The notes below the pieces were generated by a model that did no database searches, was not told the origin of the DNA, and was given only the letters and a program-made list of their open reading frames with translations. From contig PFXB01000127.1 of NCBI GenBank assembly GCA_002791435.1, positions 1 through 24,241 of the forward strand: DNA of 24,241 bases. Direction: 5' to 3'. This document shows positions 6,608 to 24,241 of the stretch, piece after piece. Source of the DNA: a candidate division WWE3 bacterium CG_4_9_14_3_um_filter_43_9 (GTDB lineage: Bacteria > Patescibacteriota > CPR3 > GCA-002780085). The position numbers and the translations under genes were made by a program. Numbering within the stretch: the stretch's first letter is position 1; the number at the start of each line of letters is the position of its first letter.

Positions 6608-6716
6608 CAGCCAGAATAAATAGTCGAGTTTCCAAGACGGGTAAAATCCAGAGAAAGGCTTTGCAGTAACCCAAAAATAGATTCGACCTCCCGCTTTCTA
6701 CTGCCTAAAACAGTCT

Positions 6717-6752
6717 TTGCTTAAAATTTGCCAGTTATGTTAAAATACGAGT
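6717..6752 (+). promoter_or_regulatory. Putative sigma70 promoter for metG, probably giving a leaderless mRNA
   Basis: TTGCTT (6717-6722), TG-n extended -10 TAAAAT (6741-6746), 6 nt before ATG 6753, no SD. Confidence 0.55.
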
Positions 6753-8195: not shown

Positions 8196-8209
8196 ACTTT
8201 GGAGCGAAG

Positions 8210-8986
8210 ATGTCTTTTTTAATCGACACCCATGCACATTTGAATTTTCCGGAGTTTGAGACCGATCGCAATGAAGTCATAGCCAGAGCTTTCGCTGGCG
8301 GAATAAAAGTCATCATCAACCCGTCTTCCTCTGTGGCAACGAGCAGAACTGCGGTAAAGCTGGCCCAAGCCTACCCTCAGATTTTTGCGGCTGTAGGAGT
8401 ACACCCTTACGAGATTGATACTTTCTCTGCCTCTGCCTTGGAAGAATTGATCCTCAAGCCTAAAGTTGTCGCCTTAGGCGAGTGCGGATTGGATTTTTTC
8501 CGCAGAAAGAACCGCGAAATACTTGAAAAACAAAGGGTGGCTTTTGAAAAACAGTTGCGGCTGGCAGAAAAATACAATTTGCCTGTGATTGTCCATTCCA
8601 GAAATGCATTTGACTTGACCTTGGCGATTCTCAAAGAATACGATGTCAGGGCGGTTTTCCATTGCTGGTCATATGGATTGAAAGAAGCGTTGACGGCAAT
8701 CAAGAGCGGTTATTCCATTTCTTTCACCGCTATAGTGACTTATCCCAACGCCGATCCGATCCGGCAAACAGCCGCCGCCATTCCGCCGGACAAGTTCTGG
8801 TTGGAAACTGATTCGCCTTTATTGCCGCCTCAAAGCCAACGGGGTCAAAGAAATGAACCGCAAAATCTTTGGGAAATTGCCCGCCAGGTGGCGGATTTAA
8901 GGCAAGTTGACCTGAACATTCTGGTTGAGAAAACTAGTGTTAATGCCATCCGTTTTTTTAAGCTTAAAGATCTGAAAAAATGGTAA
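8210..8986 (+). CDS. tatD: TatD-family metal-dependent DNase
   Basis: DTHAHL, GVHP, GECGLD, VHSR, HCW, ETDSP motifs; conserved metG-tatD adjacency. Confidence 0.95.
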   Translation: MSFLIDTHAHLNFPEFETDRNEVIARAFAGGIKVIINPSSSVATSRTAVKLAQAYPQIFAAVGVHPYEIDTFSASALEELILKPKVVALGECGLDFFRRKNREILEKQRVAFEKQLRLAEKYNLPVIVHSRNAFDLTLAILKEYDVRAVFHCWSYGLKEALTAIKSGYSISFTAIVTYPNADPIRQTAAAIPPDKFWLETDSPLLPPQSQRGQRNEPQNLWEIARQVADLRQVDLNILVEKTSVNAIRFFKLKDLKKW

Positions 8987-9035
8987 AATAGACATGCAAC
9001 TTTGTTAAAACAATTTGTCGTCCCATACAGGACAA

Positions 9036-9216
9036 TGTCATCCTGAGCGAAGTCGAAGGATCCCGTAGGAAGCAAGTATGGAAAGCTTAGCTTTCGAAAA
9101 GCAAACTTAAAGTTCAAAGTGTAAATCTCAAAACCTAGTTTAAAGTTAAAAACTTTTTGGCTTTAATCTTGCGTCAAAAATGGAAACCTGGATTCCCTTG
9201 TCAGTTGGGAATGACA
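9036..9216. repeat. Composite TGTCAT...ATGACA element enclosing an AT-rich ~7-mer tract
   Basis: Head TGTCATCCTGAGCGAAGTCGAAGGATCCC (9036-9064), tail GGATTCCC...GGGAATGACA (9190-9216), AAAGTT-type tract between them. Confidence 0.75.
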
Positions 9217-9267
9217 GGCATGGCCAAAAGTGACATTCTGTTTTTAAAGGACTAACCGAAAAAAGCC

Positions 9268-10743
9268 ATGAAATCTCAAAGAGTCATCGAAATTGTCATT
9301 GGTCTTGTAACCTGGCTGGCAATCACTTCTCCGATCTGGGCCTCATTTTTAATTCCGAAAGTAATGGCCTATTTTATCATTCTCATGGCCGTCTATTGGC
9401 TTTACAAATCCGCCAAGTATGCCGTTTCCGCCGTTTTTGGATTTATAACCATCAAAAGAAACGAAAAAATGAATTGGCTCTCCTTGGCGCAAAAGCATCC
9501 CGACTTTGAAAAGGTTTCGCACATTGTCATCATTCCCAACTACAAGGAATTGGAGGAAAAAATCCGCATTAATTTGCAATACCTGGCAGCTCAGACTTTA
9601 TCATCTCGCAAAATCATCGTGGTCTTAGCCATGGAAGAAAGAGAGGGAGCGGAGGCTAAAGCAAAAGCCCGTCATCTCAGCGACGAATTTGGCGACACTT
9701 TTGGCCTTATTACTGCCACTTTTCATCCTGATCTTCCCGGAGAACTCAAGGGCAAGTCATCCAACGAAGCCTGGGCAGGAAGAAAGATCAAGATGGATCT
9801 GGTTGACCGCAAAAACATGGATATCAATTTTCTAACCATCACTTCTTGTGACGTCGATTCCCTTTTTAACCCTCAGTATTTTGCGGCTTTAACCTGCCTT
9901 TTTTTGAATGATCAAAACCGCTATCGCAAATTTTGGCAAGGCTTACTCACCGAATATGCCAATCTGGACAGGACCATTCTGCCCGTACGCCTGGTCTCTG
10001 CCATTGATTCGGTCCTGAGAATGGCCCTGCCGTTCCAGGAGGGATTCTTTCTGCCTTATTCCACCTATTCAGCCAGCCTGAAAATGGTTTTCGAGGTGGG
10101 TTTCTGGGATACCGACATTATTCCCGAAGATTGGCATATGTTTTTTAAATGTTTTTTTAATCTCAAGGGAGAGGTGGAAACGATGCCTATCTATCTTACC
10201 AATCATGGAGATTCAATCGAGGGGAACGACTTTTTTGATGCTTTGAAAAACCGCTATGTGCAAAACCGCCGTCACGCCTGGGGAGTGACCGATATCCCCT
10301 ATATTATCGTGCAATGGGCCAAACACCCGGAGATTCCTTTTTTCAGGAGAACTCTTTTAGTGATTCGCTCTTATGAGGCTCATTTCCTGTGGCCCACCTC
10401 CTGGTTTCTTTTGACTTTGGGGGTAAATCTGCCGGTGGTTATCAATCCTCAGCTCAAAGAAACCGTCTTGGGTTACAATTTTTCCATCTTTGCGAGAAAT
10501 ATTCTGGCCGTGTGTTTGGTTCTGACCTGTGCTTTTATTATTCTCGATCTTCTCTCCCATCCGCCGCAAAATAAGAGTGACAAAATCTGGGTTCGGATCC
10601 TCTCCTTTCTGCAATGGTTTTTAATGCCCTTTATTACTCTTTTTTTAGCCACACTGCCTGGATTGGATGCGCATACCCGGATTATGCTCAATCGCCGAAT
10701 TGAGTATAAGGTTTCTGAGAAAAGAGTGGGGAAAGGTCATTAA
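9268..10743 (+). CDS. Membrane-bound family 2 glycosyltransferase (processive synthase-like architecture)
   Basis: N-terminal TMs, IPNYKE, KGKSSN, CDVDS (DxD), IPEDW, QNRRHAWG, C-terminal TMs. Confidence 0.85.
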   Translation: MKSQRVIEIVIGLVTWLAITSPIWASFLIPKVMAYFIILMAVYWLYKSAKYAVSAVFGFITIKRNEKMNWLSLAQKHPDFEKVSHIVIIPNYKELEEKIRINLQYLAAQTLSSRKIIVVLAMEEREGAEAKAKARHLSDEFGDTFGLITATFHPDLPGELKGKSSNEAWAGRKIKMDLVDRKNMDINFLTITSCDVDSLFNPQYFAALTCLFLNDQNRYRKFWQGLLTEYANLDRTILPVRLVSAIDSVLRMALPFQEGFFLPYSTYSASLKMVFEVGFWDTDIIPEDWHMFFKCFFNLKGEVETMPIYLTNHGDSIEGNDFFDALKNRYVQNRRHAWGVTDIPYIIVQWAKHPEIPFFRRTLLVIRSYEAHFLWPTSWFLLTLGVNLPVVINPQLKETVLGYNFSIFARNILAVCLVLTCAFIILDLLSHPPQNKSDKIWVRILSFLQWFLMPFITLFLATLPGLDAHTRIMLNRRIEYKVSEKRVGKGH

Positions 10744-10783
10744 AATAACTCAAAACGCAACTGGCAGCCGACTGTCCACCGAA

Positions 10784-10875
10784 AACAAGAGAAACAAGAG
10801 GTTAACAAGAGGTTTCTCCTCTTGCAAGAGGAGAAACCTCTAACAAAACCTCTAACAAACCTCTAACGTCTCTAA
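10784..10875. repeat. Perfect 34-bp palindrome flanked by short iterated repeats
   Basis: 10808-10841 AGAGGTTTCTCCTCTTGCAAGAGGAGAAACCTCT is its own reverse complement; AACAAGAG x3 on the left, AACCTCTAAC x3 on the right. Confidence 0.9.
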
Positions 10876-11065
10876 AAAACGGAGGGAAGTGGGAAGGAGG
10901 ATTGCAGAAGTATTCCTTCTCCTTAAAGGAGAAGGAGAGCCCACCAAGTCGGCGGAAACTCCAGAATCCAGGAAAGAGCGATTCTGTGACAATTTGGATA
11001 AGATCAAGGATGACACCTTTACCATGGTCGTCCTTTCAGGTTAAATTTGAAAGAGAGGTTTTACT

Positions 11066-11497
11066 ATGTCTTGGTTTGCAAAAAAATCGCTTATCAAAAA
11101 GAGGGTAGTTTCCAACTCTGAAGATCCAAAAAGATTAAAGGATAAATCCCTCTTTCCCAAGCTTTCAATCTTTCAAGACAAATCAAGCGAATTTTCATTG
11201 ATTGGAATTGCGCTTGTGTTTTCAAGTCTGCTCGTCATCCTTTCCTGGCAATACTCATTTCTTCCTCCCCAAATTCCCTTTTATTACAACTTAAGCGGGG
11301 GCGAAAGACTGGCCGGCAAAGAAATTCTCTGGTTGGTTCCGTCAGTCCTGGGTATTTTTTCGACCATCAATCTCACCTTGGCCCAACTGAACTATAAGCG
11401 CGAGCCTGTCCTCTCGCGGGTTTTGATCATTGCCCTATTTTTTATTATTTTCTTAAGTTTTCTTGGCGTTTTGAAGATTATTGGTTTGGTGATTTAA
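11066..11497 (+). CDS. Small membrane protein (DUF1648-like)
   Basis: Three hydrophobic segments and LPPQIPFYY motif; stop abuts the next ATG (TAAATG). Confidence 0.65.
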   Translation: MSWFAKKSLIKKRVVSNSEDPKRLKDKSLFPKLSIFQDKSSEFSLIGIALVFSSLLVILSWQYSFLPPQIPFYYNLSGGERLAGKEILWLVPSVLGIFSTINLTLAQLNYKREPVLSRVLIIALFFIIFLSFLGVLKIIGLVI

Positions 11498-12571
11498 ATG
11501 GAATTTCTGCTGGTAGTCTTCATCCCATTCATAACGACTTTAATCTTGACTCCCCTAGTAATGCGGTTGGCTCTCCGATGGGGATTTAAAGATGATCCTC
11601 AAACCCACCACCACCCGGCGATCCTGCACCGTAAAGCCCTGCCTCGCGCCGGAGGATTACCAATTTATATCGCCTTGGTTGTCTCGATTTTGATCTTCTG
11701 CCCTTTGGAAAAACACTTAATCGGCTTAATTTTAGGAGCCACTATTATCGTAATCGACGGACTTTTGGATGATAGATACAACCTTCATCCCTTATTACGT
11801 TTTATCTCGCAATTTGTAGCCGCCGGAATAATCGTCCTCTCCGGGGTCGGGATCACCTACATCACCAATCCTTTCGGCGGACTCATCCGTCTGGATGTCG
11901 TCAATATCACTCTCAACTTTTTCGGCGAACACCATCTCTTGCTTCTGGCTGATCTTTTCGCTCTCTTCTGGATCGTGTGGACGATGAATTTGGTCAATTG
12001 GTCCTCGGGAGTTGACGGACAAATGCCGGGGTTTGTGATTATTGCTGCCGGAACCTTGGCTCTGTTAGCACTTCCGTTTACGACTTATGACGCCAGCCAA
12101 TGGACGGTTATTAAAATCTGTCTGATGGTTGTCGGAGCCACCTTGGCTTTTTTGATTTTTAACTGGCATCCGGCTAAAATCTTGCCGGGAGACAGCGCTT
12201 CCATGCTTTTGGGTTTTTTCTTGGCGGTTCTGGCCATTCTTTCCGGAGGCAAAGTGGCCACCGCAGTTTTGGTTTTAGGAATACCCACTCTGGATGCGGC
12301 CTGGGCAATTTTGCGGAGAGTAAGCAAAAAAAGGCTTCCCATCTGGGGAGACCGGAAACATTTGCACCATCAATTGCTTGATCTGGGTTTGAGTCAAAGA
12401 CAAGTGGCAGTGATCTATTGGATTCTCACGGCAATTTTAGGAAGTGCGGCTTTACTTTTTTCGGGCCGTCAAAAACTGTGGCTCTTGATTGTCTTGGGGG
12501 GACTTTTAGCCTTCTTCTTAATTCTCATCCACCGCTTTATGAAAGCAAAAGCCAAAAAAGTAACAGTATAG
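11498..12571 (+). CDS. Undecaprenyl-phosphate HexNAc-1-phosphate transferase (WecA/TagO/MraY family)
   Basis: PRAGG, GLLDD, N..N...GVDG, FNWHPAKILPGD, DRKHLHHQL motifs; polytopic. Confidence 0.92.
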   Translation: MEFLLVVFIPFITTLILTPLVMRLALRWGFKDDPQTHHHPAILHRKALPRAGGLPIYIALVVSILIFCPLEKHLIGLILGATIIVIDGLLDDRYNLHPLLRFISQFVAAGIIVLSGVGITYITNPFGGLIRLDVVNITLNFFGEHHLLLLADLFALFWIVWTMNLVNWSSGVDGQMPGFVIIAAGTLALLALPFTTYDASQWTVIKICLMVVGATLAFLIFNWHPAKILPGDSASMLLGFFLAVLAILSGGKVATAVLVLGIPTLDAAWAILRRVSKKRLPIWGDRKHLHHQLLDLGLSQRQVAVIYWILTAILGSAALLFSGRQKLWLLIVLGGLLAFFLILIHRFMKAKAKKVTV

Positions 12572-13016
12572 CCAACATCTGGGTTAAAATTCCGAAGGTC
12601 TTTTTCCCGAAAAAAAGAGTGTTACGGCGGACATCCTGATCTATGCTGATATGGATATTTTCCCAACCTTGAAAAAAACGGGAACGACAATGAAAAAAGT
12701 AAAAAGGAATCCGCATGGCATCCGGCAGGATGGCCATTCCAGCACAGATCAAAATTAACCAAAATTTAGATGTCGAAAAACCTTCCCGGAAGGCAAAAAA
12801 CAAACCCAGACCCAGCGATAAGAAGGAATCTATGAGAAGGACTACAAAGGCTTTCTTGTCTCGCAACAGATTGGTAATACTCGTTGTCCAGTGAGGAATG
12901 GCATCCAAAACAAAGTGCGAAAAAAATGCCAGGATAATTGCCAGGAAAGGATTTTGGATTTTAGCAGCAATGACAATTCCTGCCACAGCATGGGGAGTTA
13001 AAAACATGAGTTTCAT
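12537..13016 (-). CDS. Membrane protein, putative metal-dependent hydrolase (YdjM/DUF457-like)
   Basis: HAVAG, SHFVLDAIPH and LPD motifs with several TMs; its 3' end overlaps the convergent WecA-like gene by 35 bp. Confidence 0.7.
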   Translation of the reverse strand: MKLMFLTPHAVAGIVIAAKIQNPFLAIILAFFSHFVLDAIPHWTTSITNLLRDKKAFVVLLIDSFLSLGLGLFFAFREGFSTSKFWLILICAGMAILPDAMRIPFYFFHCRSRFFQGWENIHISIDQDVRRNTLFFGKKTFGILTQMLAILLLFWLLLS

Positions 13017-13081
13017 CTTAAATTTTTCAATTCATTTTGTCAATTAAGTTGTTTGTATTTATTCGGTTCTTTCCAGTAGAT

Positions 13082-13177
13082 TGTCATTTCGAGTGAAGCC
13101 GAAGGCGTAATCGAGAAATCCCTTCTGGTTTTTAAAAAAGGGGTCCCTCTCCGCCAGCTGGCGGACTCGGGATGACA
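13082..13177. repeat. TGTCAT...GATGACA composite palindromic element
   Basis: Head TGTCATTTCGAG..TCGAGAAATCCC; tail contains CCGCCAGCTGGCGG hairpin and GGGATGACA. Confidence 0.75.
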
Positions 13178-13275
13178 GTTTTAGCCATTTCGATTCACTA
13201 AACAGCAACTTCAAAATTACACTGTGTTTGGAGAAAACTGAATAGTTACAGTTGCTTCAAAGTGGTTTTTAAGGG

Positions 13276-13310
13276 TAGACATTATTTTGAACTTGACGTA
13301 TATTGTGATT
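13276..13310 (+). promoter_or_regulatory. Putative promoter, probable leaderless start at ATG 13311
   Basis: TAGACA (13276-13281), 17-bp spacer, TATATT (13299-13304), 6 nt to ATG, no SD. Confidence 0.55.
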
Positions 13311-13856
13311 ATGGAAAAGTTACTCAAGGGAATGTTTTTCCAAGAAATAGTCGATCAGGTTCACGGACAAAAGGGTGAAAAGGCTCTCTGCGAACTGGAA
13401 AGACAGTTCGGCAAGCCACTCACTTTCTCCAACTTCAAAGGATATCCGCTGGAAGATCACCTTAGACTCCTAGAACTAGGCTCCAAAATTATTTTCAAGG
13501 ATAAAGACAGAAAGGAAGCTATCTTTGAGATGGGTAAACTTTCCTGGCTGACTTTTGCCCAAAGCATGGTGGGAAAAACGGTGCTGGCACTGTACGCTAA
13601 AGATCTAAGGAAAACCGCCCTTTCCATTGCCAAACTCTGGGGAATGATAACTAACTTCGGCGTGCGCGAATGTCAAGATTTGGGAGAAAGAAAGGTTAAA
13701 ATCATCATCAAAGAAGATCCGCGTCCACCTGAATATATTGTTGGGGTCCTAAGCGGCGCGGTTGAATTTTTTAAGGCTGTCCCTAAGATAGAAACGAAAG
13801 TGTTCTCATCTGAGCATTGTGAGTTTATCGTCAGCTGGGAAAACCCCCGGACATGA
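13311..13856 (+). CDS. DUF2378 / TIGR02265-like protein (H-NOX/V4R-like fold), paralog 1
   Basis: KGMFF, FKGYP, FAQSMVGK, PRPPEYIVGVLSG and terminal VSW pattern. ATG 13311 is preferred over the track's TTG at 13287 because of the promoter spacing. Confidence 0.75.
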   Translation: MEKLLKGMFFQEIVDQVHGQKGEKALCELERQFGKPLTFSNFKGYPLEDHLRLLELGSKIIFKDKDRKEAIFEMGKLSWLTFAQSMVGKTVLALYAKDLRKTALSIAKLWGMITNFGVRECQDLGERKVKIIIKEDPRPPEYIVGVLSGAVEFFKAVPKIETKVFSSEHCEFIVSWENPRT

Positions 13857-13926
13857 ACTACCACGGCCTGCCGCCGTGGTATCCTCCCCGCCTCCCTTTT
13901 GGTCATCCTTATCTAGTCTATTTTAC

Positions 13927-13993
13927 GTCATTCTGGCTCAGTCCAGAATCTAATTCTGGAGCCCCCGCCGAGTCGGCAAGTCACCAGAATGAC
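13927..13993. repeat. GTCATTCTGG...CCAGAATGAC element (copy 2)
   Basis: Same termini as 1869-1936; interior carries the CCGCCGAGTCGGC module. Confidence 0.85.
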
Positions 13994-14107
13994 AGTAATG
14001 TACTTCTCCATGCTCCCGCCTTTGTCGGTATGAGTCGAAGCATAATAATTTTATTGTTCGACTTTTATGGAGAACTACCTTTTTGACTTTTGGCTTACTT
14101 TTGACCC

Positions 14108-15190
14108 TTAAGTTTTGCCCGTCAATTGGTGTAATCTCTTCAAGGCTCTCTTTTCTTCATAATACCCCAGCTTTGCCCATCTGACCGCTTTTTCCAAAAC
14201 CCCGATCGAAGCATCATAGGTTGTTCGCTCCACCGGAAAGGGGTAGCCGTCTTTGCCGCCATGGGCAAAAGCAAAACGGGCCGGGTCGCGAAAGGAAGGG
14301 GCTTGGCCGTAGATTAGTTCGGCAATCAAAGAAAGCGCCCGCAGTGTTTTTGGACCGACACCTTTTGCCGACAACAAGGCTTCAAAATCTTGAGGTTTGG
14401 TTTCTTTGACGAATTGTAAAATTTTTTTGAGTCTGCCAAGATCAAAATCCTCGGCATAGATCGGGTGGTGGAAAGGCAGTTTAAGGGTATCGATTTTTTG
14501 GAAATGACTGACGAGCCCGGCAGGCGAGATTTCATTTACGAGTTTTGTTTCCAACTTTCTGATCCCCTGGCTTTGAGAAGCGATTAAGTTTAAAACGGCG
14601 GTTTCTTTCCGATCGCAGCAGATCGCGTTTTGCGGCTCCTCTACAAAACTTTTTACCGTTTCCGAAATCCAATGATAGCGCCGCGCCATCTTATTTTTCT
14701 CATTCATACCCTGCTGAATCACAATCCATTTCCCCTGATCGGTAAAAATGAAATTATGATGATAAAGCTGGTAACCATCCTGCAGGGCACTGCTGTCGAC
14801 TTTGGCCGACATTTTGGAAGCGTACACCAAGGGCGCGGCATCAAAGCCGTATTGTTGGCCGAAAGCTTCAATCTCGTGCGGAGTTTTTCTGGAAGTTGCT
14901 CCCTTGCCGCCGGCCATAAAAAAACCTGTTTCTTTTTCCAAGCCTTTCAACCCTTCCTTGAGAGCTCCGGTCGTGGTGGTGGTTAATCCTGAAGAATGCC
15001 AGTCAAAACCCAAAACACAACCTAAAGCCTGAAACCAGAAGGGATCGGATAATTTGTAAAGTAGATCAGAAACGCCAAAATCCTCAATGATATATAAAGC
15101 GATCTGCCGCGCCAACGGTACCATGCGTTCGAAAAGCCATTTGGGAGCACTGCCAAAATGTAAGGGCAGCTGCGCCGTTCCGACTTTCAT
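14108..15190 (-). CDS. DUF763 domain-containing protein
   Basis: LPLH.G.AP.WL..RM, LSDPFWFQALGCVLGFDWHSSGLTT, GGKG, DGYQLYHH, FAHGGKDG.PFPV signature. Confidence 0.92.
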   Translation of the reverse strand: MKVGTAQLPLHFGSAPKWLFERMVPLARQIALYIIEDFGVSDLLYKLSDPFWFQALGCVLGFDWHSSGLTTTTTGALKEGLKGLEKETGFFMAGGKGATSRKTPHEIEAFGQQYGFDAAPLVYASKMSAKVDSSALQDGYQLYHHNFIFTDQGKWIVIQQGMNEKNKMARRYHWISETVKSFVEEPQNAICCDRKETAVLNLIASQSQGIRKLETKLVNEISPAGLVSHFQKIDTLKLPFHHPIYAEDFDLGRLKKILQFVKETKPQDFEALLSAKGVGPKTLRALSLIAELIYGQAPSFRDPARFAFAHGGKDGYPFPVERTTYDASIGVLEKAVRWAKLGYYEEKRALKRLHQLTGKT

Positions 15191-15332
15191 CTTAATCTCC
15201 TTTTTGAAAACCCGAAGATATACCGAAAGTACAACAGGTCGAACCTGTTTTTTGGGTTGCTGTTGCGCCTTATCAAAGCTTAGCTTTACTTGGCAAGCTA
15301 GGTTTCCATCTTAAATTATCATGGTTATCGCC

Positions 15333-15446
15333 GTAGCGGAAACCTTTAGGTTTCCATGTTCTCGGATCATGGCGATTCTTGCTGTTGCCGCTACGAAGTC
15401 TCCTTCCTTCATTCCTACGGGATTCAGCATCCAGTACGGGATGACA
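15333..15446. repeat. REP doublet element, inverted diverged copy of 6516-6607, with ATGACA end
   Basis: GTAGCGGAAACCTTTAGGTTTCC...GCCGCTACGAAG...ACGGGATTC...GGGATGACA. Confidence 0.85.
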
Positions 15447-15643: not shown

Positions 15644-16493
15644 GGGTAATTCCTGATTTTAGCCACTAAAATCGATCACTTTTTTAAACAAACGGTCTGT
15701 TTGCAATTTGACATCCAACCTTCGGTAATTATACCTCCAAACATACTCACCAAGAAAGAGAGGAAGATATTTTCTTTTAACGCCTCCCTTGGCCGCCAAC
15801 TTTCTTTTTAGGTATCCCCAAAATCCTTCCAGTCCATTAATGTGATTTTTGCCCCGGACATATTCCTTTGCTCCGTGTTCTACCGTTCGGTGGACATATC
15901 CTTTAGCCGCTAGTCCGGTGTAAGCTCTCCAAGTATCGGAACAAACCCTTGAGCCGGCCTTGACTTTCCTGGTAATGATCGGCAGCAAATCTATCGCTTC
16001 GGCATCCTCAATCAACCTGGCAAAGACCTTGCCTTGACGGGTTAAAATGCCAAACACGGGTTGTTTTGTTGTTCCGAAGCCTCGTTTGCTTTCCGATTCT
16101 TTTTTAAGCTGACTTTTCCGTTTGTTTTTCTTCTGCCCTCCCAGATAGGTTTCATCTACCTCTACTGTTCCGGAGAAAACTCCGGGAACATCTTGCACCA
16201 TTACTTTTCTGGCTATACCCACCGTTTTCTCCACCGAGTAATGGCTAACCCCGTTTGTGCACTGATGGTCCTTAGGCTATGCCCGAGAACAAACCAAAAC
16301 AGAATCTTTTTCCAAACCGTTTTCATTAGCCCTAATCAGGCAATCTTTGGTTTCCACCCGTATCGGCAGTTTTTACACCGTTTTTTACTCCTTCTGACAG
16401 AGTAAAACTTTCTGTTTTGACACCGAGGACAAGAATATCCCTTCATAACGACCTAATTATATCATTGTTGGTGGTCGTTTTCAGGACTTACCC
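15644..16493 (-). mobile_element. IS1595-family insertion sequence, 850 bp, degenerate
   Basis: Imperfect TIRs GGGTAATTCCTGA.. / ..TCAGGACTTACCC; direct repeat ATTAGAA at 15637-15643 and 16494-16500; encloses an ISXO2-type DDE transposase. Confidence 0.88.
15659..16446 (-). pseudogene. IS1595 (ISXO2-like) transposase pseudogene
   Basis: ATG 16446 gives zinc ribbon CPRC..CKNC. In-frame TGA at 16336-16338 and a frameshift near the C4 run 16249-16252 precede the DDE domain (VEVDETYLGG, CSDTWRAY, VEHG, HINGLEGFW, YLPLFLGEY.WRYN). Confidence 0.88.
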
Positions 16494-16668: not shown

Positions 16669-17217
16669 ATGGAAATCGATTATGATAAAAACCAGGTCCC
16701 TGGATATTTCCTGCTGGAAGACGTGAATTTCGTCAGAAAGGAAAAAGGGCCGTTCGGTATCACCAAACTTAAGAAAATATTTCCGGAAATCGACATTGAC
16801 AAGATCTCGCCCTTCCGCAAATATCCTCTAAAACACGAACTTGCGCTCTTGAAAGCCGCCGCTATTATAATTTACGGGGACGATTCGCCGACTTCTTGGG
16901 CCAAGCTTGGCCGGCACGATTTTGAAACCATGGCCAATTCAAATTTAGGCAAAGTTCTAATCTCTCTTTTTGGCAAAGATGTGGTTAAATTAATCAAAAA
17001 CGCCAGCCGGTTTTTTCACTTCTTCGCGCCGTTTATCACCTTTAGTTATCAAGAATTAGACAAACATCATGCCATCTTCACCATTGAGAACGATCCCTAT
17101 CCCAGGGAATATTATCTGGGATACTTCCTGGCTCTGAGAGATTTTATTGGAAGTCATGGGATAATCACGGTTAAGGATGCCGGCGGCAGAAAATATATTT
17201 ATGAAGTCTATTGGTAA
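16669..17217 (+). CDS. DUF2378 / TIGR02265-like protein, paralog 2
   Basis: VPGYFL, FRKYP, LG..DFET..NS.LGK, PYPREYYLG, terminal YEVYW; aligns with paralogs 1 and 3. Confidence 0.7.
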   Translation: MEIDYDKNQVPGYFLLEDVNFVRKEKGPFGITKLKKIFPEIDIDKISPFRKYPLKHELALLKAAAIIIYGDDSPTSWAKLGRHDFETMANSNLGKVLISLFGKDVVKLIKNASRFFHFFAPFITFSYQELDKHHAIFTIENDPYPREYYLGYFLALRDFIGSHGIITVKDAGGRKYIYEVYW

Positions 17218-17271: not shown

Positions 17272-17814
17272 ATGGAAAGCGAAAAAGAAAAAGTTCCTGG
17301 TTTCTTTTTAATCGAGGATGCCAATTTTGTCAAAAAGATGAAAGGTCCACGCGGCATTGAAAAACTAAAAAAATTGCTGCCAAGTCTTAATCTTGACAAA
17401 CTCTCGCCGGTACGCAAATATCCTTTGACGCAAGAAATCGAGATGTTGCGCGCGACAGCCAAAGTGGTTTATGGAGATGATTCGCCTGCCTCCTGGGAAA
17501 AATTGGGGCATCATGATTTTGAAACCGTCAGAGATTCAAGTTTGGGAAAAATCTTGCTGTCTTTATGGGGCAACAGCTTCGTCAATCTGGTTAAAAACGG
17601 TAGCCGTCTGTTTTTCTTCTTCGCTCCTTTTGTGAAATTTACGTACGAAAATCTTACCGAGCAGGGAGCAATTTTTACCGTTGAAAATAATCCCTATCCC
17701 AAAGAATACTACCTAGGTCTTTTTAAATCCATCCAAAATATGGTTAAAGCCGGCGGAGAGATAACCGTGACTAAGGTGAACCCCAAAAAACATGTCTATC
17801 GTCTCAAATATTAA
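17272..17814 (+). CDS. DUF2378 / TIGR02265-like protein, paralog 3
   Basis: Clear tandem paralog of 16669-17217 (VPGFFL, RKYPL, YGDDSP.SW.KLG.HDFET, FAPF, NPYPKEYYLG); GGAG SD upstream. Confidence 0.7.
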   Translation: MESEKEKVPGFFLIEDANFVKKMKGPRGIEKLKKLLPSLNLDKLSPVRKYPLTQEIEMLRATAKVVYGDDSPASWEKLGHHDFETVRDSSLGKILLSLWGNSFVNLVKNGSRLFFFFAPFVKFTYENLTEQGAIFTVENNPYPKEYYLGLFKSIQNMVKAGGEITVTKVNPKKHVYRLKY

Positions 17815-17817
17815 CTG

Positions 17818-18561
17818 CTACAGGTTAAGCATGGCCAACATCAGAAGGATTCCTAAGCCGATGCCTAAAAACTGGTTTAAAGCTTGTGAAGGATGAAGTT
17901 CTTTATGGAGTTCAGGCAAAAGATCGGAGCCGGCGATATACAAAAATCCGCCGGCCGTTGCCGGCAGAATATAAAGATAGATGTCTTCAATTTTGATTCT
18001 CACCAAAATCACAACCAAAACCCCCAGCAAAGCTGCCAGTGCCGAAATAAAGTTATAAAGCAACGCTTTTTTACGGGAATAGCCGGCGTGAAGCAAGACC
18101 CCAAAATCGCCGATCTCCTGTGGAATTTCATGGGCTAAAACGGCCAGAGTGGTTGTGATCCCCAAAGTAAAGTTGGCTAAAAAACTGCCGGCAATCAAAA
18201 CCCCATCCAGAAAATTGTGCAGTCCGTCACCGATCAAATTCATGGTGGCAATGCTGCTGCTATGCTCTTTACATTCAGGGTCGTGACAGTGGTGCCACTT
18301 GACCATTTTTTCCAACGTAAAAAAGAGAAAAATGCCGCCCAGAATCAGGAGAGAAATTTTGATCTCCAACCCCATCCTCTCGTAAATATCTGGAATAAGG
18401 TGCAGGAAAACGTCTCCGAAAAGAACGCCGGTGGCAAAAGAGACTAAAAAGGAGATGATCTTTTTTAAATCCTCTTTTTGGAGCGGTAGGAACAAAACCC
18501 CGACTAGGGAGATTGAACTGACAATCAAAACCGCCACCAAAGAATAAACTGCATTAACCAT
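17818..18561 (-). CDS. ZIP (ZupT-like) divalent metal transporter
   Basis: FLHLIPD, His/Cys loop HHCHDPECKEH, GDGLHNFLDG, HEIPQEIGDFGVLL, SDLLPEL. Confidence 0.95.
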   Translation of the reverse strand: MVNAVYSLVAVLIVSSISLVGVLFLPLQKEDLKKIISFLVSFATGVLFGDVFLHLIPDIYERMGLEIKISLLILGGIFLFFTLEKMVKWHHCHDPECKEHSSSIATMNLIGDGLHNFLDGVLIAGSFLANFTLGITTTLAVLAHEIPQEIGDFGVLLHAGYSRKKALLYNFISALAALLGVLVVILVRIKIEDIYLYILPATAGGFLYIAGSDLLPELHKELHPSQALNQFLGIGLGILLMLAMLNL

Positions 18562-18576
18562 AAAAAATAGTATACC

Positions 18577-18600
18577 AGCTTCACTTTAGAAAGTGAAGCT
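18577..18600. promoter_or_regulatory. Perfect 11-2-11 inverted repeat upstream of the ZIP gene (operator or terminator)
   Basis: AGCTTCACTTT-AG-AAAGTGAAGCT, directly upstream of TG-n-TATACT (- strand), which lies 7 nt before the ZIP ATG. Confidence 0.55.
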
Positions 18601-18718
18601 ATGTAATTCTTTCTCCTAAAATCATTTTAGGAGGCTTGACTAAGCAGCGGTTGAATTCTTTGAAGAAGTGCTTGAGACCGGATTGGGTGGCTTTGCCGTG
18701 GGTTTGCGCGTTGGCCAC
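18598..18718 (-). pseudogene. Orphan 3' fragment of an allele of the ABM-like gene
   Basis: 121-bp direct repeat of 19626-19746 with 6 mismatches; encodes VANAQTHGKATQSGLKHFFKEFNRCLVKPPKMILGERIT*. Confidence 0.9.
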
Positions 18719-18940
18719 AAGAAATCTCCACCCATCGGTAGACAGAAAGCCGTAGGGTAAAAATTGTATTCAGAAAAAACTAATCACGACACAACGTTTT
18801 GGCTTTCAAGGCTAGATTTTCCAAGTAGATATTAAATACGAGAAAAAAGGCAATCACCCGCCCCTGGATTTATAAAAGAAACAATTTTGCCATACTTGTT
18901 GTTGGGAAGGTTGTTAGCTTTAGTGCGGATTTTCCGGCGA

Positions 18941-19573
18941 TTAATGACTATGGACAAAACCGGCAGCTTCTTCAACATTGACTGTTTTGGTTTCACGATC
19001 ATCTCCGTATTGGACCAATAAATTTCCACCCGTATCCATTACTAGCCCTTTCCTGCCGGAAGAACCGGTTACACTAACTTGGGCTTCGCTTGTATAAACC
19101 ATTTTAGGATTATCTGGACTGAGGACATAATAACCACGGTCTTTTAACCATCCTGCTTTTCTTGGATCGTCGGTGACGGGTAAAACGATTTCATCGGGTT
19201 GAAGTCCATCTGTTCGCGGTTCAGAAACTCCTCTTCCCAATAAAACTAAATGTTGGATGTCAGTAATATTGACGGTAGCCACAGGGGTTCCGTCCTGCAC
19301 AACAGTAGCGTACAGTTCCGGACTGTCTTTGCCAAGCAAACCCAGGGCCGTCAGACTTATTTTTAAACCCGGGACATCCAATTTTTCACCGCTCAACTCA
19401 TATTCAAAAACACCCAAAGAAGCTGCGGGTCTTTCTCCTTCCGACGCCAGTGTCTTTTCTACTTCAGCTGGTTCAGGAGTAACCCCCTCCGGTCCTTTAC
19501 CACCACTTAAAACAGCAGCAGCTCCGGCAAGAGTGGCGACTTTTAGAAACGTCTTTCTGCTTATTTTCGGCAT
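18941..19573 (-). CDS. Hypothetical exported protein with Tat-like N-terminus
   Basis: SRKTFLK followed by a hydrophobic stretch; strong AAGGAGG SD. Confidence 0.75.
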   Translation of the reverse strand: MPKISRKTFLKVATLAGAAAVLSGGKGPEGVTPEPAEVEKTLASEGERPAASLGVFEYELSGEKLDVPGLKISLTALGLLGKDSPELYATVVQDGTPVATVNITDIQHLVLLGRGVSEPRTDGLQPDEIVLPVTDDPRKAGWLKDRGYYVLSPDNPKMVYTSEAQVSVTGSSGRKGLVMDTGGNLLVQYGDDRETKTVNVEEAAGFVHSH

Positions 19574-19626
19574 AATATTCCTCCTTCTTTTTGTCTTTTC
19601 TTTTATTTTATCATATTCTATAACTG

Positions 19627-19980
19627 CTATATAATTCTTTCTCCTAAAATCATTTTAGGAGGCTTGACTAAGCAGCGGTTGAATTCTTTGAAGAAGTGCT
19701 TGAGACCGGATTTCGTAGCTTTGCCGTGGGTTTGCGCGTTGTCGACTTCCCAATATAAAACGTAGGTGAGAGCCTCTGGTTTACGCGTAAGCTTGATGGC
19801 CGGCTCGCCTCTTTTGGCGCCGCCGAAACTGGTCGGCCGGTGAGTCCGCTTCAGATAGCGCACGTCAAAGACTCCCGGAAATTCGGTATGGTGTTTGATA
19901 ACTTTGCGGATCAGTTCTTCGAACATCTCTTCTTTTTCTACTCTGACGTCATAGATGCAAACTTCAACAAAATGAGACAT
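19627..19980 (-). CDS. Small protein, probable dimeric alpha+beta barrel (ABM/YciI-like)
   Basis: ATG 19980 with AGGAG SD (preferred to the track's 20094 start); pattern EV..YDV..EKEEMFEE....PGV.DVR...Y..YWE...H. Confidence 0.6.
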   Translation of the reverse strand: MSHFVEVCIYDVRVEKEEMFEELIRKVIKHHTEFPGVFDVRYLKRTHRPTSFGGAKRGEPAIKLTRKPEALTYVLYWEVDNAQTHGKATKSGLKHFFKEFNRCLVKPPKMILGERII

Positions 19981-20008
19981 GTTTTTACTCCTTTGGACAA
20001 TCAAAAGG

Positions 20009-20428
20009 TTAAATTGCAGTTTCAAAAATTTCCGGCGGTTGTTTCCCAAAATCGCTGTATCGTAACCAAAAAGGGGCGATTCTAAACCACACACCCGCGG
20101 GCGACTCGAAATAGTCTTTCCACTCGGGATGAATATTCAGGGTATATTCTTTGGCTGCCCTTGCCTCTTTGCCGTAAAGTGCGCAGACTTTGCCGTCAAG
20201 CTGAACAGTCGGGTCATTTTTCAACCCGCCAATAACGAGTGCCACTTGATTATTTTCTTTAATGTTTGGATATTTCCGAGTATTTGTCTCGGTAAAAACA
20301 TACATCTGAAAGTTGTTCTGAATGGTATAAACCAAAACTGCCGCCTCTGGTTTGCCTTCAAGACTTGCCGTGGCTAAAACACACAAGTCATTCTTTTTTA
20401 AAAACTCAAGCACGTCTTTGCTGGTCAT
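20009..20428 (-). CDS. Pyridoxamine 5'-phosphate oxidase-like FMN-binding protein
   Basis: CVLATAS.EGKPEAA, TRKYPNIKENNQVALVI, VQLDG motifs. Confidence 0.88.
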   Translation of the reverse strand: MTSKDVLEFLKKNDLCVLATASLEGKPEAAVLVYTIQNNFQMYVFTETNTRKYPNIKENNQVALVIGGLKNDPTVQLDGKVCALYGKEARAAKEYTLNIHPEWKDYFESPAGVWFRIAPFWLRYSDFGKQPPEIFETAI

Positions 20429-20454
20429 CGGATTTTCTCCTTGTTAAAAAAAGT

Positions 20455-20880
20455 TTACGGCGCTGCTTTTTTGGCTCTTTTGGCTCTTAGTTCAGTCAAT
20501 CCTTTTGCTTCCAGCTCGTCTGCTTTTCTGCGGGCTTCTAAAAATTCCTTATCTTTTGCAAGTCTTCTAAACCACTCACTCTCATAGAAATCTTTGAGGG
20601 TGGCTTTGGCGGATTGAAGATAAGCCACAATTTCCGGGTCACCAGCATGTTCAGGATAATAATCAAACTCAGGAACCGCTCCGTGATATTTTTGAGCCTG
20701 TGGACTTGCGGAGAGTAAATTAGATTCAACCGTAACATCTCGGTTAACATTGCCTTTATGGCAACAATCCTCGAAATCCAAAATCGCCTGGTCTGGGTAC
20801 CCTAATTCAATTCCATCCTCTAAAATTTCCATTATGGTTTCTGGTAAAATTAAACCGTCTTGTTGAGCTGCTTTAAGCAA
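20455..20880 (-). CDS. Hypothetical protein; true start uncertain (frame is open upstream)
   Basis: Protein-like ORF co-oriented with neighbours; the reading frame continues upstream of the track's TTG. Confidence 0.55.
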   Translation of the reverse strand: MLKAAQQDGLILPETIMEILEDGIELGYPDQAILDFEDCCHKGNVNRDVTVESNLLSASPQAQKYHGAVPEFDYYPEHAGDPEIVAYLQSAKATLKDFYESEWFRRLAKDKEFLEARRKADELEAKGLTELRAKRAKKAAP

Positions 20881-21246
20881 AGAACGCTCTTCTTGAGACC
20901 ATGCCTTAAATCCTCCAAATCCTTCTCGTGCATCAAATCGTTCAACACCTGGAATCTGAGTATGTTTTGTTTTCCATTCTATTCCTTTTATTTTGGTGAG
21001 GAGACTGATTTCGTAGTGAGATAAAAAGACAAAAGGAATAAATCTTCTATCCTTTTATCCCGTCATGAAACTGAGTTCTGAAACCAGTTCCGAGTATTGC
21101 GCTTCAACCTTAAGATTGGAGATATGACAAAATTGCCCAAAGCAATTTAAAATCAAAATTAGCTCGCTTGGGCGAGCAAAAGGAAACCTGCCTGCATAAG
21201 CAGGTACCATGAGCGTCAGGCTCAGGGAGATTCATATTTTGTACTT

Positions 21247-21699
21247 TCAATGTTGACCCGTAAGTTTGTCTCTAATGCTCCTCGCTAGATAGAATACTCT
21301 TTCCGCTCTTAGTAAAGATTCATTTTCCTGCTCCGTAACCGCTCCTGGGGGGAATGTCTCAATTATTCGCTCTCCGCCCATTTCATCCCTTGCCATCCAA
21401 AGTGCTATCTCTCCTTGCGATTCCAGATAGTCAGCCACCGCCAACCCTCCTTCGTCTATTGCCACTCTATTATCTAACCAATCTAATACGGTAGTATCTC
21501 TCTTCAAATATGCCTCAAACCTTTGCCGCAACAATCTTCCTTGCACAGAGATTGCATTGTCCCATTTACTAAGACCGGCGTTCCACGCTCCTATTGAAAG
21601 TTCAATCGTCCCTCTTTGTCTTTTCAAGATTCCTCTAGCTTCATGGACAATTTCGGAAAATTCTGCCTTTTCGGCAACAGATGAAAGTTGGTCGGGCAT
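21247..21699 (-). CDS. Hypothetical protein
   Basis: 150-aa ORF with GGAG SD; no family recognised. Confidence 0.65.
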   Translation of the reverse strand: MPDQLSSVAEKAEFSEIVHEARGILKRQRGTIELSIGAWNAGLSKWDNAISVQGRLLRQRFEAYLKRDTTVLDWLDNRVAIDEGGLAVADYLESQGEIALWMARDEMGGERIIETFPPGAVTEQENESLLRAERVFYLARSIRDKLTGQH

Positions 21700-21761
21700 A
21701 ATAGTAAACTCCGTTTTTTTAAATTTCTTTATTGAGATGTTTGATTATCCAGCTTATCATA

Positions 21762-21842
21762 TCAATTTTTCTTGCGTTCCGTATAATACTTTCTTCCCCT
21801 CAGCTCATCCGGTAACAAATTCTTATCTTTATCCGGGTACAT
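21762..21842 (-). pseudogene. Orphan C-terminal gene fragment, RarA/MgsA-like (copy 1)
   Basis: Encodes MYPDKDKNLLPDELRGRKYYTERKKN*; LPxEL.G.+YY resembles the RarA C-terminus. Confidence 0.6.
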
Positions 21843-21870
21843 TTCAGTTTGAACCTTCCCCTGTTCGGCT

Positions 21871-22425
21871 TCACCAATACCCTTTTCCGTAATGAAAGGT
21901 GTTTTTGCTCTGCATGACATAATCGTAAACTGCTTGCGAACAAAGCGGGATAAACATGGTTCCTGCATCGTATTTAATTTCACCTTTAATGTTTTCAAAA
22001 GAAATTTTCCTCATCATCGTCTTAAAACCTACTTTTTCGTAGAGTAGATAGGCTTCCTTTTTCAAGTCAACATTAAAGCAGGCTATATCGCACTTTTCCT
22101 TCTTCAGTAATTTTAATCCTTCTTTCAACATCTTCGTTGCAATACCTTTTCTTCTCATTGATTTTGCAACGCATACTCCACCCGTCCCGCCAAAAACTAT
22201 CTCCTTTTCGCCAAATTTAATTTTTCGTTTGAATAAACCGAGCATTCCGACAATTTTTCTGCCTTGATATGCAAACAGCCTCCCAAACTCTTGAGAGATA
22301 AAATCTTCTTCTATTGACTGCCTGTCTACATCACTAAAACACTCCTTTTGCAGCTTCAAGATAGAACTTTCTTGAAAGGGAGTAAGTTTCTTTTCTACGA
22401 TAAACTTAATTTCAATTTCATTCAT
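21871..22425 (-). CDS. GNAT-family N-acetyltransferase
   Basis: GGVCVAKSMRRKGIATKML (motif A, R-x-x-G-x-A), LYEKVGF. Confidence 0.92.
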   Translation of the reverse strand: MNEIEIKFIVEKKLTPFQESSILKLQKECFSDVDRQSIEEDFISQEFGRLFAYQGRKIVGMLGLFKRKIKFGEKEIVFGGTGGVCVAKSMRRKGIATKMLKEGLKLLKKEKCDIACFNVDLKKEAYLLYEKVGFKTMMRKISFENIKGEIKYDAGTMFIPLCSQAVYDYVMQSKNTFHYGKGYW

Positions 22426-22497
22426 GATGTTTCTTTTTTCTTATAATACTTCCTTCCTTTTAACTCCTCGGGCAACAGGTTGTTTTTTCGGGTAGAG
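22422..22497 (-). pseudogene. Orphan C-terminal gene fragment, RarA/MgsA-like (copy 2)
   Basis: Encodes LYPKK/(frameshift)/NLLPEELKGRKYYKKKETS*; its TGA overlaps the GNAT ATG as ATGA. Confidence 0.6.
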
Positions 22498-22692
22498 GCT
22501 CTATTCCCTCTGGACTTAATTTGAAACAGGCGACGGGCGTTGGCTGAAGTATAAATGATTCAGCATGATTCTATAAGTAAATTAATGGGCTATTAGTCTG
22601 GAAAGCTCGTTTAGTTTCAAAATGGTACTTTCTTACTAAAGAATACTGCGGGTTGAACGAAGTTAGAACCTGTTACTAACATTTTAAGAAAA

Positions 22693-24066
22693 CTAATTAC
22701 CGGATAATGCCTCTAGCAATTTTTTGGTAGCTCGATATTTGATATACTTACCCTCTCTTTCCCCAAGCACCAAGCCCACTTTCTCCAATTCTTTTATGTC
22801 CTTGGCGGCCGTTTGTCTGGAAATACTGCTCAGAATCGCATGAGAAGTAACGGTGGTATGCGTATTACTATCTGAAGCTAGATAATGCAGCAAATGTTTT
22901 TGTCTGTCTGTTAAATATAAATTTGTACTGATGATCTTGTCTATTTCCTTGTTTTCTGAAATTTTTCTAACGACGTATTCATTGAAATCATTGAGGGCTT
23001 GCATTATTTTCCTGATATGAAAATCAAAAAAATAAGTCGCGTCATATGCGTCTTGTTCAGAATAAATATATGCCATTGCATACTGAATAGGAGCTTTTTT
23101 GATAGTTAAAGAAATCGGTAGATACATAAACGTCCAATAATTCTTTCTAAGCAAATACCAGTAAAAAAGAGATCTTGCCAATCTGCCATTTCCATCTGTA
23201 AAGGGATGCAAGTAGCCAAACCAAAAATGTAAAAAAATGGCTTTAATGATTGGATGTAAAAATTTATTATCGTCCGCATCATTCGCATAATCAATTAGTT
23301 TCTCTATTTCTTCTTTGACAAACTTTTCTGCAGGCGGAATATGGGTTATATATTCTTGAGATCCAATTTGGCCCTGTACGACTATTCCGTCTGAATTTTT
23401 TCTTAATCTTCCCTGTTCTTCCCTCTTTATTGTTTTTTCAGTTAACATTCTATGTAACTCGAATAATAATTCTTTCGATAAAGGTTGATTTTTATAAACC
23501 TCATCAATTTTAAAAATCGTATTGTAATTATTTAAAATCATTTGTTCATCTTTATTCCTTGGCTCTCTTTTTTCAACAATCATCTTTTTGGCGGCTTGCC
23601 GTGTTGTATGTGCTCCTTCTAGTTGACTTGAGGCTATAGCTTCTTCTAAAATACCTCTTGAGATAAATTTCTGCTTATTTGAATCCGACAAAACGTCCAT
23701 CGAAGTAAATACTTGACCACCGGAACTAACATCAATTTTATGTAAAAATTCATCAACGTAAGACAATCTAATCCATTTAAAATAATCTCCTTTTTCACTT
23801 TTTATCGGTGTATCCCGCGAAACAATAGTCCTAAATTGCTTAATAAAAAACCAGGCTTCTTCAGAAGTAAAACCATGAGGAGTTTCTTTATGCTTTACTT
23901 CGTCCCAATATAAATATTGCGGCTCATTTCTTCTCTGTAAAAACTGAGCTAATTCTGCTATATTTTCAGTCTTGCCGAATATTTTCCCTCTATCTACTCT
24001 TTTTAAATCAGGCTTATCTAGCTTGAAATAGGGTAAAGTTAAATTTTTACTTGTCATATCTGTCAT
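22693..24066 (-). CDS. Fic-family protein with N-terminal inhibitory motif and C-terminal winged-helix domain
   Basis: HPFTDGNGRLAR catalytic motif; SSQLEG matches (S/T)xxxE(G/N); C-terminal ISRQTAAKDIKELEKVG HTH-like segment. Start may be 24057. Confidence 0.95.
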   Translation of the reverse strand: MTDMTSKNLTLPYFKLDKPDLKRVDRGKIFGKTENIAELAQFLQRRNEPQYLYWDEVKHKETPHGFTSEEAWFFIKQFRTIVSRDTPIKSEKGDYFKWIRLSYVDEFLHKIDVSSGGQVFTSMDVLSDSNKQKFISRGILEEAIASSQLEGAHTTRQAAKKMIVEKREPRNKDEQMILNNYNTIFKIDEVYKNQPLSKELLFELHRMLTEKTIKREEQGRLRKNSDGIVVQGQIGSQEYITHIPPAEKFVKEEIEKLIDYANDADDNKFLHPIIKAIFLHFWFGYLHPFTDGNGRLARSLFYWYLLRKNYWTFMYLPISLTIKKAPIQYAMAYIYSEQDAYDATYFFDFHIRKIMQALNDFNEYVVRKISENKEIDKIISTNLYLTDRQKHLLHYLASDSNTHTTVTSHAILSSISRQTAAKDIKELEKVGLVLGEREGKYIKYRATKKLLEALSGN

Positions 24067-24074
24067 ATTAGATT

Positions 24075-24140
24075 ATGTTAAATACATGTTAAGTATATGT
24101 TAATACTTAACATGTTAACATCCGGCTAAATACATGTCAA
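24075..24140 (-). promoter_or_regulatory. fic promoter overlapped by an ATGTTAA repeat/operator array
   Basis: - strand TTGACA (24140-24135), 17 bp, TAACAT (24117-24112); ATGTTAA at 24075, 24086, 24097 and 24112; 11-6-11 inverted repeat at 24086-24113. Confidence 0.7.
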
Positions 24141-24241
24141 TCCCATAATGCAAACAAGAGGAGGCGGAAAAATTCCAAGTTTCAACGGTGTTTTTAAGTC
24201 GAGCGCTGTGAATACCTGCAGGCTCTGCCGTGTGAGTTGAG

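Follow-up and report, generated by a model that had tools for sequence, protein, structure and literature searches.

Orphan gene tails beside accessory genes in a candidate division WWE3 genome as candidate scars of successive C-terminal displacement

The window analysed here is the whole stretch of 24,241 nucleotides formed by positions 1-24241 of the 24,529-nt contig PFXB01000127.1 (C20 in our numbering) of a candidate division WWE3 bacterium, whose genome assembly comprises 0.93 Mb in 136 contigs and is 88% complete. The relatives of this genome are all small-genome members of one phylum, its protein homologues are assigned to the Patescibacteria or candidate phyla radiation (CPR), and the sequence is found in aquifer and groundwater metagenomes. 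At the right-hand end of the window, ten co-oriented minus-strand genes extend from rarA to a ZIP transporter gene, the leftward order from the contig end being rarA, Fic, GNAT, 150-aa, 141-aa, PNPOx-like, ABM-like, 210-aa and ZIP. Between these genes lie three short fragments resembling the 3' ends of the ABM-like gene (one) and of rarA (two), which we refer to as orphan tails and which are the subject of this study. The complete rarA, as seen in other assemblies, encodes 412 aa. The features from rarA to ZIP are:

Contig 24274-24528, minus strand: 3' end of rarA, just past the window end
22693..24066, minus strand: Fic-domain gene, 457 aa, with an HPFxDGNGR motif (Pfam Fic, E 1.5e-18); first gene after rarA
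22422..22497, minus strand: orphan RarA tail 2, ~22 codons ending ...LLPEELKGRKYYKKKETS (protein profile positions 151-171 of 172)
21871..22425, minus strand: GNAT acetyltransferase, 184 aa (Pfam Acetyltransf_9/10/7/1)
21762..21850, minus strand: orphan RarA tail 1, ~28-36 codons, ...EMYPDKDKNLLPDELRGRKYYTERKKN (protein profile positions 136-171)
21247..21699, minus strand: 150-aa hypothetical, 3' of RarA tail 1; open reading frame (ORF) without Pfam match, in all assemblies
20455..20880, minus strand: 141-aa hypothetical; ORF called at 125 or 108 aa in some strains
20009..20428, minus strand: PNPOx-like gene, 139 aa (Pfam PNPOx_N, E 4e-14)
19627..19980, minus strand: complete ABM-like gene, 117 aa, no Pfam match; its last 39 codons and stop (19626-19746) are the attached copy of a repeat
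18941..19573, minus strand: 210-aa gene with a Tat-like N-terminus; sole gene between the 121-nt repeat copies (period 1,028 nt)
18598..18718, minus strand: orphan ABM-like tail, 38 codons and stop; 121 nt, 6 differences, 95% identical to 19626-19746
17818..18561, minus strand: ZIP metal transporter, 247 aa (Pfam Zip, E 6.6e-50)

The three orphan tails of the original prediction, one ABM-like and two RarA-like, are borne out by profile searches and by the 121-nt repeat. A profile built from 86 homologues aligns with the ABM-like orphan solely over positions 83-120 of 121 (E 7e-20) and finds no trace of the rest of the gene upstream of it, and the repeat terminates 1-2 nt beyond the stop codon. 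A protein profile of the RarA C-terminus, run against all six frames of 17800-24241, gave only two matches (E ~1e-3 each, 1.4e-6 combined), both on the minus strand and both reaching the profile's last position, and a DNA profile of the rarA 3' end, run over both strands of this interval, found only the same two places, again on the gene strand and up to the end of the profile. Tail 2 is matched at 22438-22482 (E 1.3e-6) and shares 88% identity over 42 nt with the attached rarA end. Tail 1, which begins at most 30 nt from the GNAT stop codon, is matched at 21781-21838 (E 5.4e-6) and was also recovered when the genome was searched at the protein level (E 6.9e-5). Beside the tails, neither protein nor DNA profiles detected upstream remnants of rarA or the ABM-like gene. 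These fragments are the only ones of their kind in the 6.4 kb, and the inserts are flanked by direct repeats of the 3' end of the target gene, 121 nt long (95% identity) for the ABM-like gene and 42-58 nt long (73-88%) for rarA. Each tail has its full-length cognate upstream, namely the ABM-like gene at 19627-19980 and rarA, whose 3' end occupies contig positions 24274-24528. The C-terminal YGKGY of the GNAT protein was also considered as RarA-like and rejected, as it is native to the GNAT family.

All tails lie on the gene strand and each directly 5' of a different gene, just as had been predicted: the stop codon of the ABM tail is followed by the ZIP start after 37 nt and that of RarA tail 1 by the 150-aa gene after 62 nt, and the stop codon of RarA tail 2 overlaps the GNAT start codon (ATGA). 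Natural gene-end-to-start spacing at every tail, with the overlap at GNAT, speaks for tails kept by selection as expression signals for the next gene, a reading compatible with either of the insertion mechanisms discussed below. In a consensus scan, however, none of the tails contained a promoter-like site; that preceding ZIP, at 18597-18569 between the ABM orphan tail and the ZIP start, follows the tail, and translational coupling is not possible from an orphan tail that lacks a start codon of its own. We consider such a role quite unlikely. A terminator-like hairpin is located at 18865-18846, after the 210-aa gene.

A fragmented metagenome assembly in 136 contigs, 88% complete, raises the suspicion that the repeats stem from a chimeric contig, collapsed strains or faulty binning. 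Against this, 20 contigs from separate samples, produced by the SPAdes, MEGAHIT and JGI pipelines, are colinear with 99.6-99.9% identity over the whole 7.6 kb, and unitigs split at the shared core of the ABM repeat, which has ~2x the depth of its flanks. An assembly artefact is excluded, its remaining probability being negligible, and the duplications are a genuine property of the genome.

Are the copies indeed alleles from other lineages, as had been proposed from their synonymous differences? For RarA they behave as such. The attached end and tail 1 differ by 9 synonymous and 5 non-synonymous changes (pN/pS 0.14, p<1e-4), the attached end and tail 2 by 5 and 6 (pN/pS 0.27, p 0.03), and tails 2 and 1 by 8 and 7 (pN/pS 0.20, p 3e-4). 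A similar excess was found in a uvrD pair on another contig of the genome, C7, to which we return below (6 synonymous, 1 non-synonymous, p 3e-4). For the ABM-like pair the proposal did not reach significance (3 synonymous, 3 non-synonymous, pN/pS 0.26, p 0.11). Tails that diverged under purifying selection were once working gene ends, and each RarA tail would, judging from these substitution patterns, have spent most of its divergence time as such. Furthermore, similarity in the ABM and uvrD pairs ends at the stop codon, as expected if donor and recipient had only the conserved gene in common. The tail types agree with an allelic origin as well: both orphan RarA tails belong to a 'YPDK.KNLLP' type shared by many of the 120 nearest RarA homologues, whereas the long linker of the attached tail, DYKWSKDYVGPT, is rare and occurs in only 5 of these 120. 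Tail 1 is best matched by the C-termini of other CPR RarA proteins and not by the resident RarA.

These data bear directly on a purely local origin, by which tandem duplication and subsequent decay, or slippage, would have left the tails with no foreign DNA involved. The ABM pair alone would suit this explanation, as its identity of 95% and its balanced substitutions are not significantly different from neutral decay. However, the RarA orphans belong to another sequence type that is better matched by other lineages, the RarA and uvrD pairs show a strong synonymous excess, repeat ends coincide with stop codons, upstream gene remnants are absent from protein and DNA profile searches, and the inserted genes are unrelated to their flanks. 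Local duplication is thus largely refuted for rarA and uvrD, and for the array as a whole we hold it to be very improbable. Target-site duplication by a transposon was rejected too, the repeats being 42-121 nt long and diverged with synonymous excess, and those of rarA being of different sequence type.

The resident rarA is, by its sequence affinities, itself a mosaic, with a body from one lineage and the last 40-77 residues from another. Residues 1 to ~335 are closest to the RarA proteins P0091 and P0092 (70%), whereas over the last 45 residues identity is 82% to P0107 and only 47-56% to P0091/P0092. N-terminal data reject a clade of the resident protein with the long-tail group (p-AU 0.0009, approximately unbiased test), but the C-terminal tree unites them (SH-aLRT 98.9), and the long tail type is scattered over the N-terminal tree, where at least 4 changes are needed to explain it. 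Core and attached tip of rarA hence differ in history; for the ABM-like gene this is not resolvable. In addition, a contig of a different organism (C75 of genome G233) carries a rarA end that is 88% (nt) and 96% (aa) identical to the one studied here, followed by genes that lack counterparts in the genome studied here. A near-identical rarA end among unrelated neighbours indicates that the rarA 3' end has moved between lineages. In yet another lineage (locus L078), a GNAT homologue with 68% identity is found 1.8 kb downstream of rarA. That locus comprises rarA (933-2183), a 250-aa gene, a weak RarA-tail-like fragment on the same strand (3014-3088, profile E 0.066) and small co-oriented genes including GNAT (4001-4549).

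The ABM-like gene seems to have a mobile history of its own. Its family is unusually well conserved, with 60-75% identity across bacteria and archaea, which suggests that the gene itself is frequently transferred. Members occur in Patescibacteria, Elusimicrobia, Actinobacteria and archaeal bins, in varying accessory-gene contexts. A language-model search placed the gene among ABM-carrying clusters, which we take as a lead only. The 210-aa protein next to it has only 5 relatives among 1.8 billion cluster representatives, all of them distant and too few for a context test.

The same geometry recurs elsewhere in this genome, most clearly on contig C7 (locus L084):

4563-6362, minus strand: uvrD, 599 aa
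3135-4187, minus strand: Fic-MerR gene, 350 aa
3077-3148, minus strand: orphan uvrD tail

Here the repeat is 79 nt long with 88.6% identity, and the orphan of 24 codons ends at the stop codon. The Fic-MerR gene, the second Fic-family gene of the genome, thus stands directly after a DNA-repair gene and is bracketed by a uvrD tail. A convergent NYN-domain ORF on the plus strand (2545-3138) takes its last codons from the antisense of this orphan tail. On contig C99, a PMT-family gene is followed by AbiEii and its partner and then, probably, by a short PMT tail. Other direct repeats of 40-200 nt (on C10, C14, C36, C77, C124 and C127) turned out to be structured intergenic elements resembling repetitive extragenic palindromes or miniature inverted-repeat transposable elements (REP/MITE-like) and were rejected as tails, and a repeat on C43, a hairpin-containing leader, was left out. 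These palindrome-rich intergenic repeats form a dispersed family that is also present in the window, at 1861-15446. In 341 kb of other CPR genomes examined as a control there was no true C-terminal orphan, a difference from this genome that is not statistically significant.

Taken together, a history of successive insertions that swapped and displaced gene tails is very probable, and in this respect the original prediction, in which a new tail enters and pushes the old tail and its neighbour downstream, is supported by the purifying divergence, the tail types, the mosaic rarA and the coupling of tail 2 with GNAT. For the way in which these insertions took place we tentatively prefer a homology-anchored, integrase-free route, a reading to which we grant nearly even chances and in which the three orphan tails would be fossil scars of successive C-terminal displacement. 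In this model, a foreign fragment would start within rarA or the ABM-like gene, both conserved, and bring along the 3' end of that gene together with the donor's downstream DNA. Homologous recombination in the conserved body would join it to the resident gene, and its far end would be connected either by an illegitimate or short-homology junction near the resident 3' end, that is, by homology-facilitated illegitimate recombination (HFIR) after DNA uptake, or by a single crossover of a circular molecule carrying tail and cargo. The gene would remain intact with a new tail, and the previous tail and previous neighbour would be shunted downstream. Host RecA and end-joining, rather than a dedicated integrase, may have sufficed as enzymes. 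Genes for recombination and a machinery for DNA uptake are reportedly retained in CPR bacteria (PMC12455944); this genome encodes RecA and ComEC, and MutS was not found.

The layout allows a putative order of events. At rarA, an initial arrangement of rarA and the 150-aa gene (with tail 1) would have received tail 2 together with GNAT, and later the long-type tail together with Fic. That tail 2 and GNAT arrived as one unit is suggested because their ATGA coupling persists and because the GNAT homologue of L078 also lies downstream of rarA. Independently, the ABM-like gene would first have preceded ZIP and then have acquired a new tail with the 210-aa gene. GNAT would accordingly be a former immediate neighbour of rarA, and ZIP of the ABM-like gene. 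If the displacement model holds, Fic is the most recent module. Its orthologues are patchy, being found in 9 of 400 phylum genomes at 36-47% identity and in unrelated contexts.

Alternatively, the tails might be attL/attR-type scars of integrative elements, driven by tyrosine or large serine recombinases and accreted at one site, provided that the integrases and most of the content were later deleted or that the modules are integrase-less satellites mobilised in trans. The geometry, the excess of synonymous changes and the coincidence of repeat ends with stop codons suit this route and the homology-anchored one alike, as replacement tails borne by an element would look the same. Moreover, a locus in another CPR genome (G080, contig C5, 163500-177500, locus L122) proves that rarA serves as a target for a serine-recombinase element:

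744-1892: full rarA
8620-10365: serine recombinase
10473-10946: orphan RarA half

The first and the last of these features are separated by 8.6 kb in which co-oriented cargo genes (Schlafen/AlbA_2, DUF488 and others) run up to the large serine recombinase of 581 aa, and the displaced RarA C-terminal half after the recombinase covers ~160 codons at ~70% DNA identity. This element supplies a replacement C-terminal half of RarA and displaces the original one. A ZIP gene is situated just past the orphan half.

The G080 element is among several points that weigh against the homology-anchored route, and most of them favour integrases instead. The two rarA events, which would be independent, left tails that start only ~15-40 nt apart, a hint that one site is preferred. 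In DNA sequence the tails have diverged by 5-27%, and if the anchor was equally diverged, RecA-mediated recombination would have been very inefficient; HFIR itself is orders of magnitude rarer than ordinary recombination (PMC5361080). In a genome that is 88% complete, integrases may be missing from the assembly, and the cargo, with Fic twice, AbiE and GNAT, is typical of mobile and defence islands. The rarA breakpoint is resolved only to roughly residues 335-375. Finally, homologue contexts yielded no donor with a rarA-Fic or ABM-210aa adjacency, and the databases no empty-site relative, the next-best RarA and ABM-like proteins being 70% and 75% identical.

On the other side, a recombinase is missing where one would be expected. 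The contig has no Phage_integrase, Resolvase or Recombinase match, tblastn for recombinase remnants gave nothing below E 0.6, the five modules contain neither a recombinase nor a remnant, and none lies within ~8 kb upstream of rarA in longer assemblies, so that the absence of an integrase noted for the window extends past position 24241. The genome as assembled encodes only two Xer-like tyrosine recombinases, both off the contig, and no serine recombinase. Furthermore, the modules are uniformly tiny (0.66-1.8 kb, with one or two intact genes), and they sit behind several unrelated targets in one small genome, rarA twice, the ABM-like gene, uvrD and probably PMT; at least 4 different target genes would require several integrase specificities. 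The crossover in G080 took place ~165 codons from the rarA end, compared with 22-36 codons here. Lastly, the mosaic boundary of rarA appears to lie upstream of the orphan tail starts, which would be the product of one homologous and one illegitimate joint inside the gene. Integrative elements are, on balance, a somewhat less probable source of the tails. The integrase independence suggested by the original prediction agrees with the lack of recombinases on the contig and in the ~8 kb upstream of rarA, but is called into question by the G080 element inside rarA. A separate region on contig C93 (8018-16712), with direct and inverted repeats of 41-47 nt around one tyrosine recombinase gene (15958-16449), may be an integrated element.

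Whichever route was taken, the array is invariant across samples and represents a fixed scar; nothing suggests current activity. The reading as an active or cassette-like array was not supported: the 20 assemblies show no gain or loss of modules, and no excision or alternative joints were present in the contigs of 4 runs (Logan contigs, which lose rare variants). One joint that 'goes back 1801' was rejected as an excision product, as it is the attached rarA end aligning to tail 2. A repeat search found that only fragments of neighbouring genes repeat between modules, with no other inter-module repeat, such as attC-type sites.

In 20 phylum-level relatives, comparison of each genome's own RarA tail with up to 18 kb downstream gave no convincing repeat, and among 400 other phylum genomes extra RarA C-terminal matches were rare; besides the one in G080, the matches of G233 and G305 are truncated at contig ends and the two near-full-length copies in G400 lie on different contigs. 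None of these three was used, and the unpublished genome G153 of the same survey bears none of the conclusions. The neighbourhoods of two ABM-like homologues (73-74%) contain no ZIP, 210-aa homologue or tail repeat, and Fic is absent downstream of the genes for two long-tail RarA relatives. No tail repeat lies within 1.5 kb of any of eight Fic orthologues from other genomes, and only one of three GNAT homologues has rarA nearby.

To date, the same kind of process has been described for polymorphic toxin loci, so that the array, unlike what had been proposed, does not represent a new kind of system. In rhs loci, C-terminal displacement has been attributed to circular intermediates that integrate by a single crossover and push the old tip downstream (Jackson et al. 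2009, PMC2935791), and for the effector-immunity arrays of type VI secretion systems (T6SS) an equivalent HFIR model was put forward (Kirchberger et al. 2017, PMC5361080). As in these and in contact-dependent inhibition (CDI) arrays, an intact gene is followed by co-oriented dissociated 3' fragments of itself, each accompanied by the gene that once lay downstream of it; the attached tip has evolved separately from the core, and the proposed mechanisms manage without integrase. The setting is nevertheless unusual. Whereas rhs/CDI/T6SS anchors are polymorphic toxins, their tips variable toxin domains and their cargo cognate immunity genes, this CPR bacterium has housekeeping or conserved genes (rarA, uvrD, ABM-like) as anchors, conserved functional C-termini as tails and unrelated single accessory genes (Fic, GNAT, a secreted protein) as cargo. 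Moreover, those arrays differ between strains, in contrast to the 20 assemblies studied here.

With integrative elements the array shares direct repeats of the target 3' end that bracket the insert, the distal stacking of older modules at a reused site and, in G080, a genuine case from the same phylum and target gene that employs a large serine recombinase. Accretion of integrative and conjugative elements with cis-mobilizable elements (ICE/CIME) and tycheposon islands are examples of tandem element accretion at one att site. Unlike such elements, the modules in the window exhibit no integrase, att-core identity or excision product, and they are single genes of 0.66-1.8 kb behind several unrelated targets. 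Integron cassette arrays resemble the locus in their co-oriented single-gene modules, newer ones being nearest the insertion point, but no integron integrase is present here on the contig or ~8 kb upstream of rarA, and the array does not vary. HFIR and insertion-duplication are known from transformable bacteria (Prudhomme et al. 2002; de Vries and Wackernagel 2002; Meier and Wackernagel 2003; cited in PMC5361080). As far as these studies are represented in that paper, one homologous anchor and one illegitimate joint insert foreign DNA there as well, and with both joints inside the anchor gene the expected product would be an intact gene, cargo and an orphan tail. The same work, so far as it is cited, was of laboratory scale with near-identical anchors, whereas the events at our locus are read from sequence alone, with tails that are 5-27% diverged.

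How streamlined, host-dependent CPR bacteria gain accessory and defence genes is poorly understood. The scars indicate that, at least in one lineage, accessory genes entered singly beside conserved genes by 3'-end swaps, and that RarA was made chimeric without being broken. If the process was integrase-free, conserved genes would act as landing pads for gene gain in tiny genomes, and orphan tails would provide a cheap, searchable marker of past transfers and of their order. If it was driven by integrases, the locus would show how fully elements shrink to cargo in reduced genomes. Either way, C-terminal displacement is extended beyond polymorphic toxin loci. An unlikely but far-reaching generalisation is that units of gene tail and cargo constitute a class of integrase-free mobile cassettes among the ultra-small CPR bacteria. 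Riding on the 3' ends of highly conserved genes (rarA, uvrD and the ABM-like family), selfish or defence genes such as Fic, AbiE and GNAT would then spread from lineage to lineage by DNA uptake and host recombination, with the gene tail serving as a portable 'att site' that repairs the target.

Other features surround the array. Three stand-alone DUF2378/TIGR02265 paralogues occur in this reduced genome at 13287-13856, 16669-17217 and 17272-17814 of the window, two of them in tandem and adjoining ZIP. A short DDE_Tnp_IS1595 ORF (180-191 aa) at 15659-16234, probably a transposase remnant, is located 1.6 kb past the array. On the other flank, longer assemblies contain a 221-aa Y1 transposase gene of IS200/IS605 type or RAYT-like character two genes upstream of rarA (locus L032, 2047-2712).

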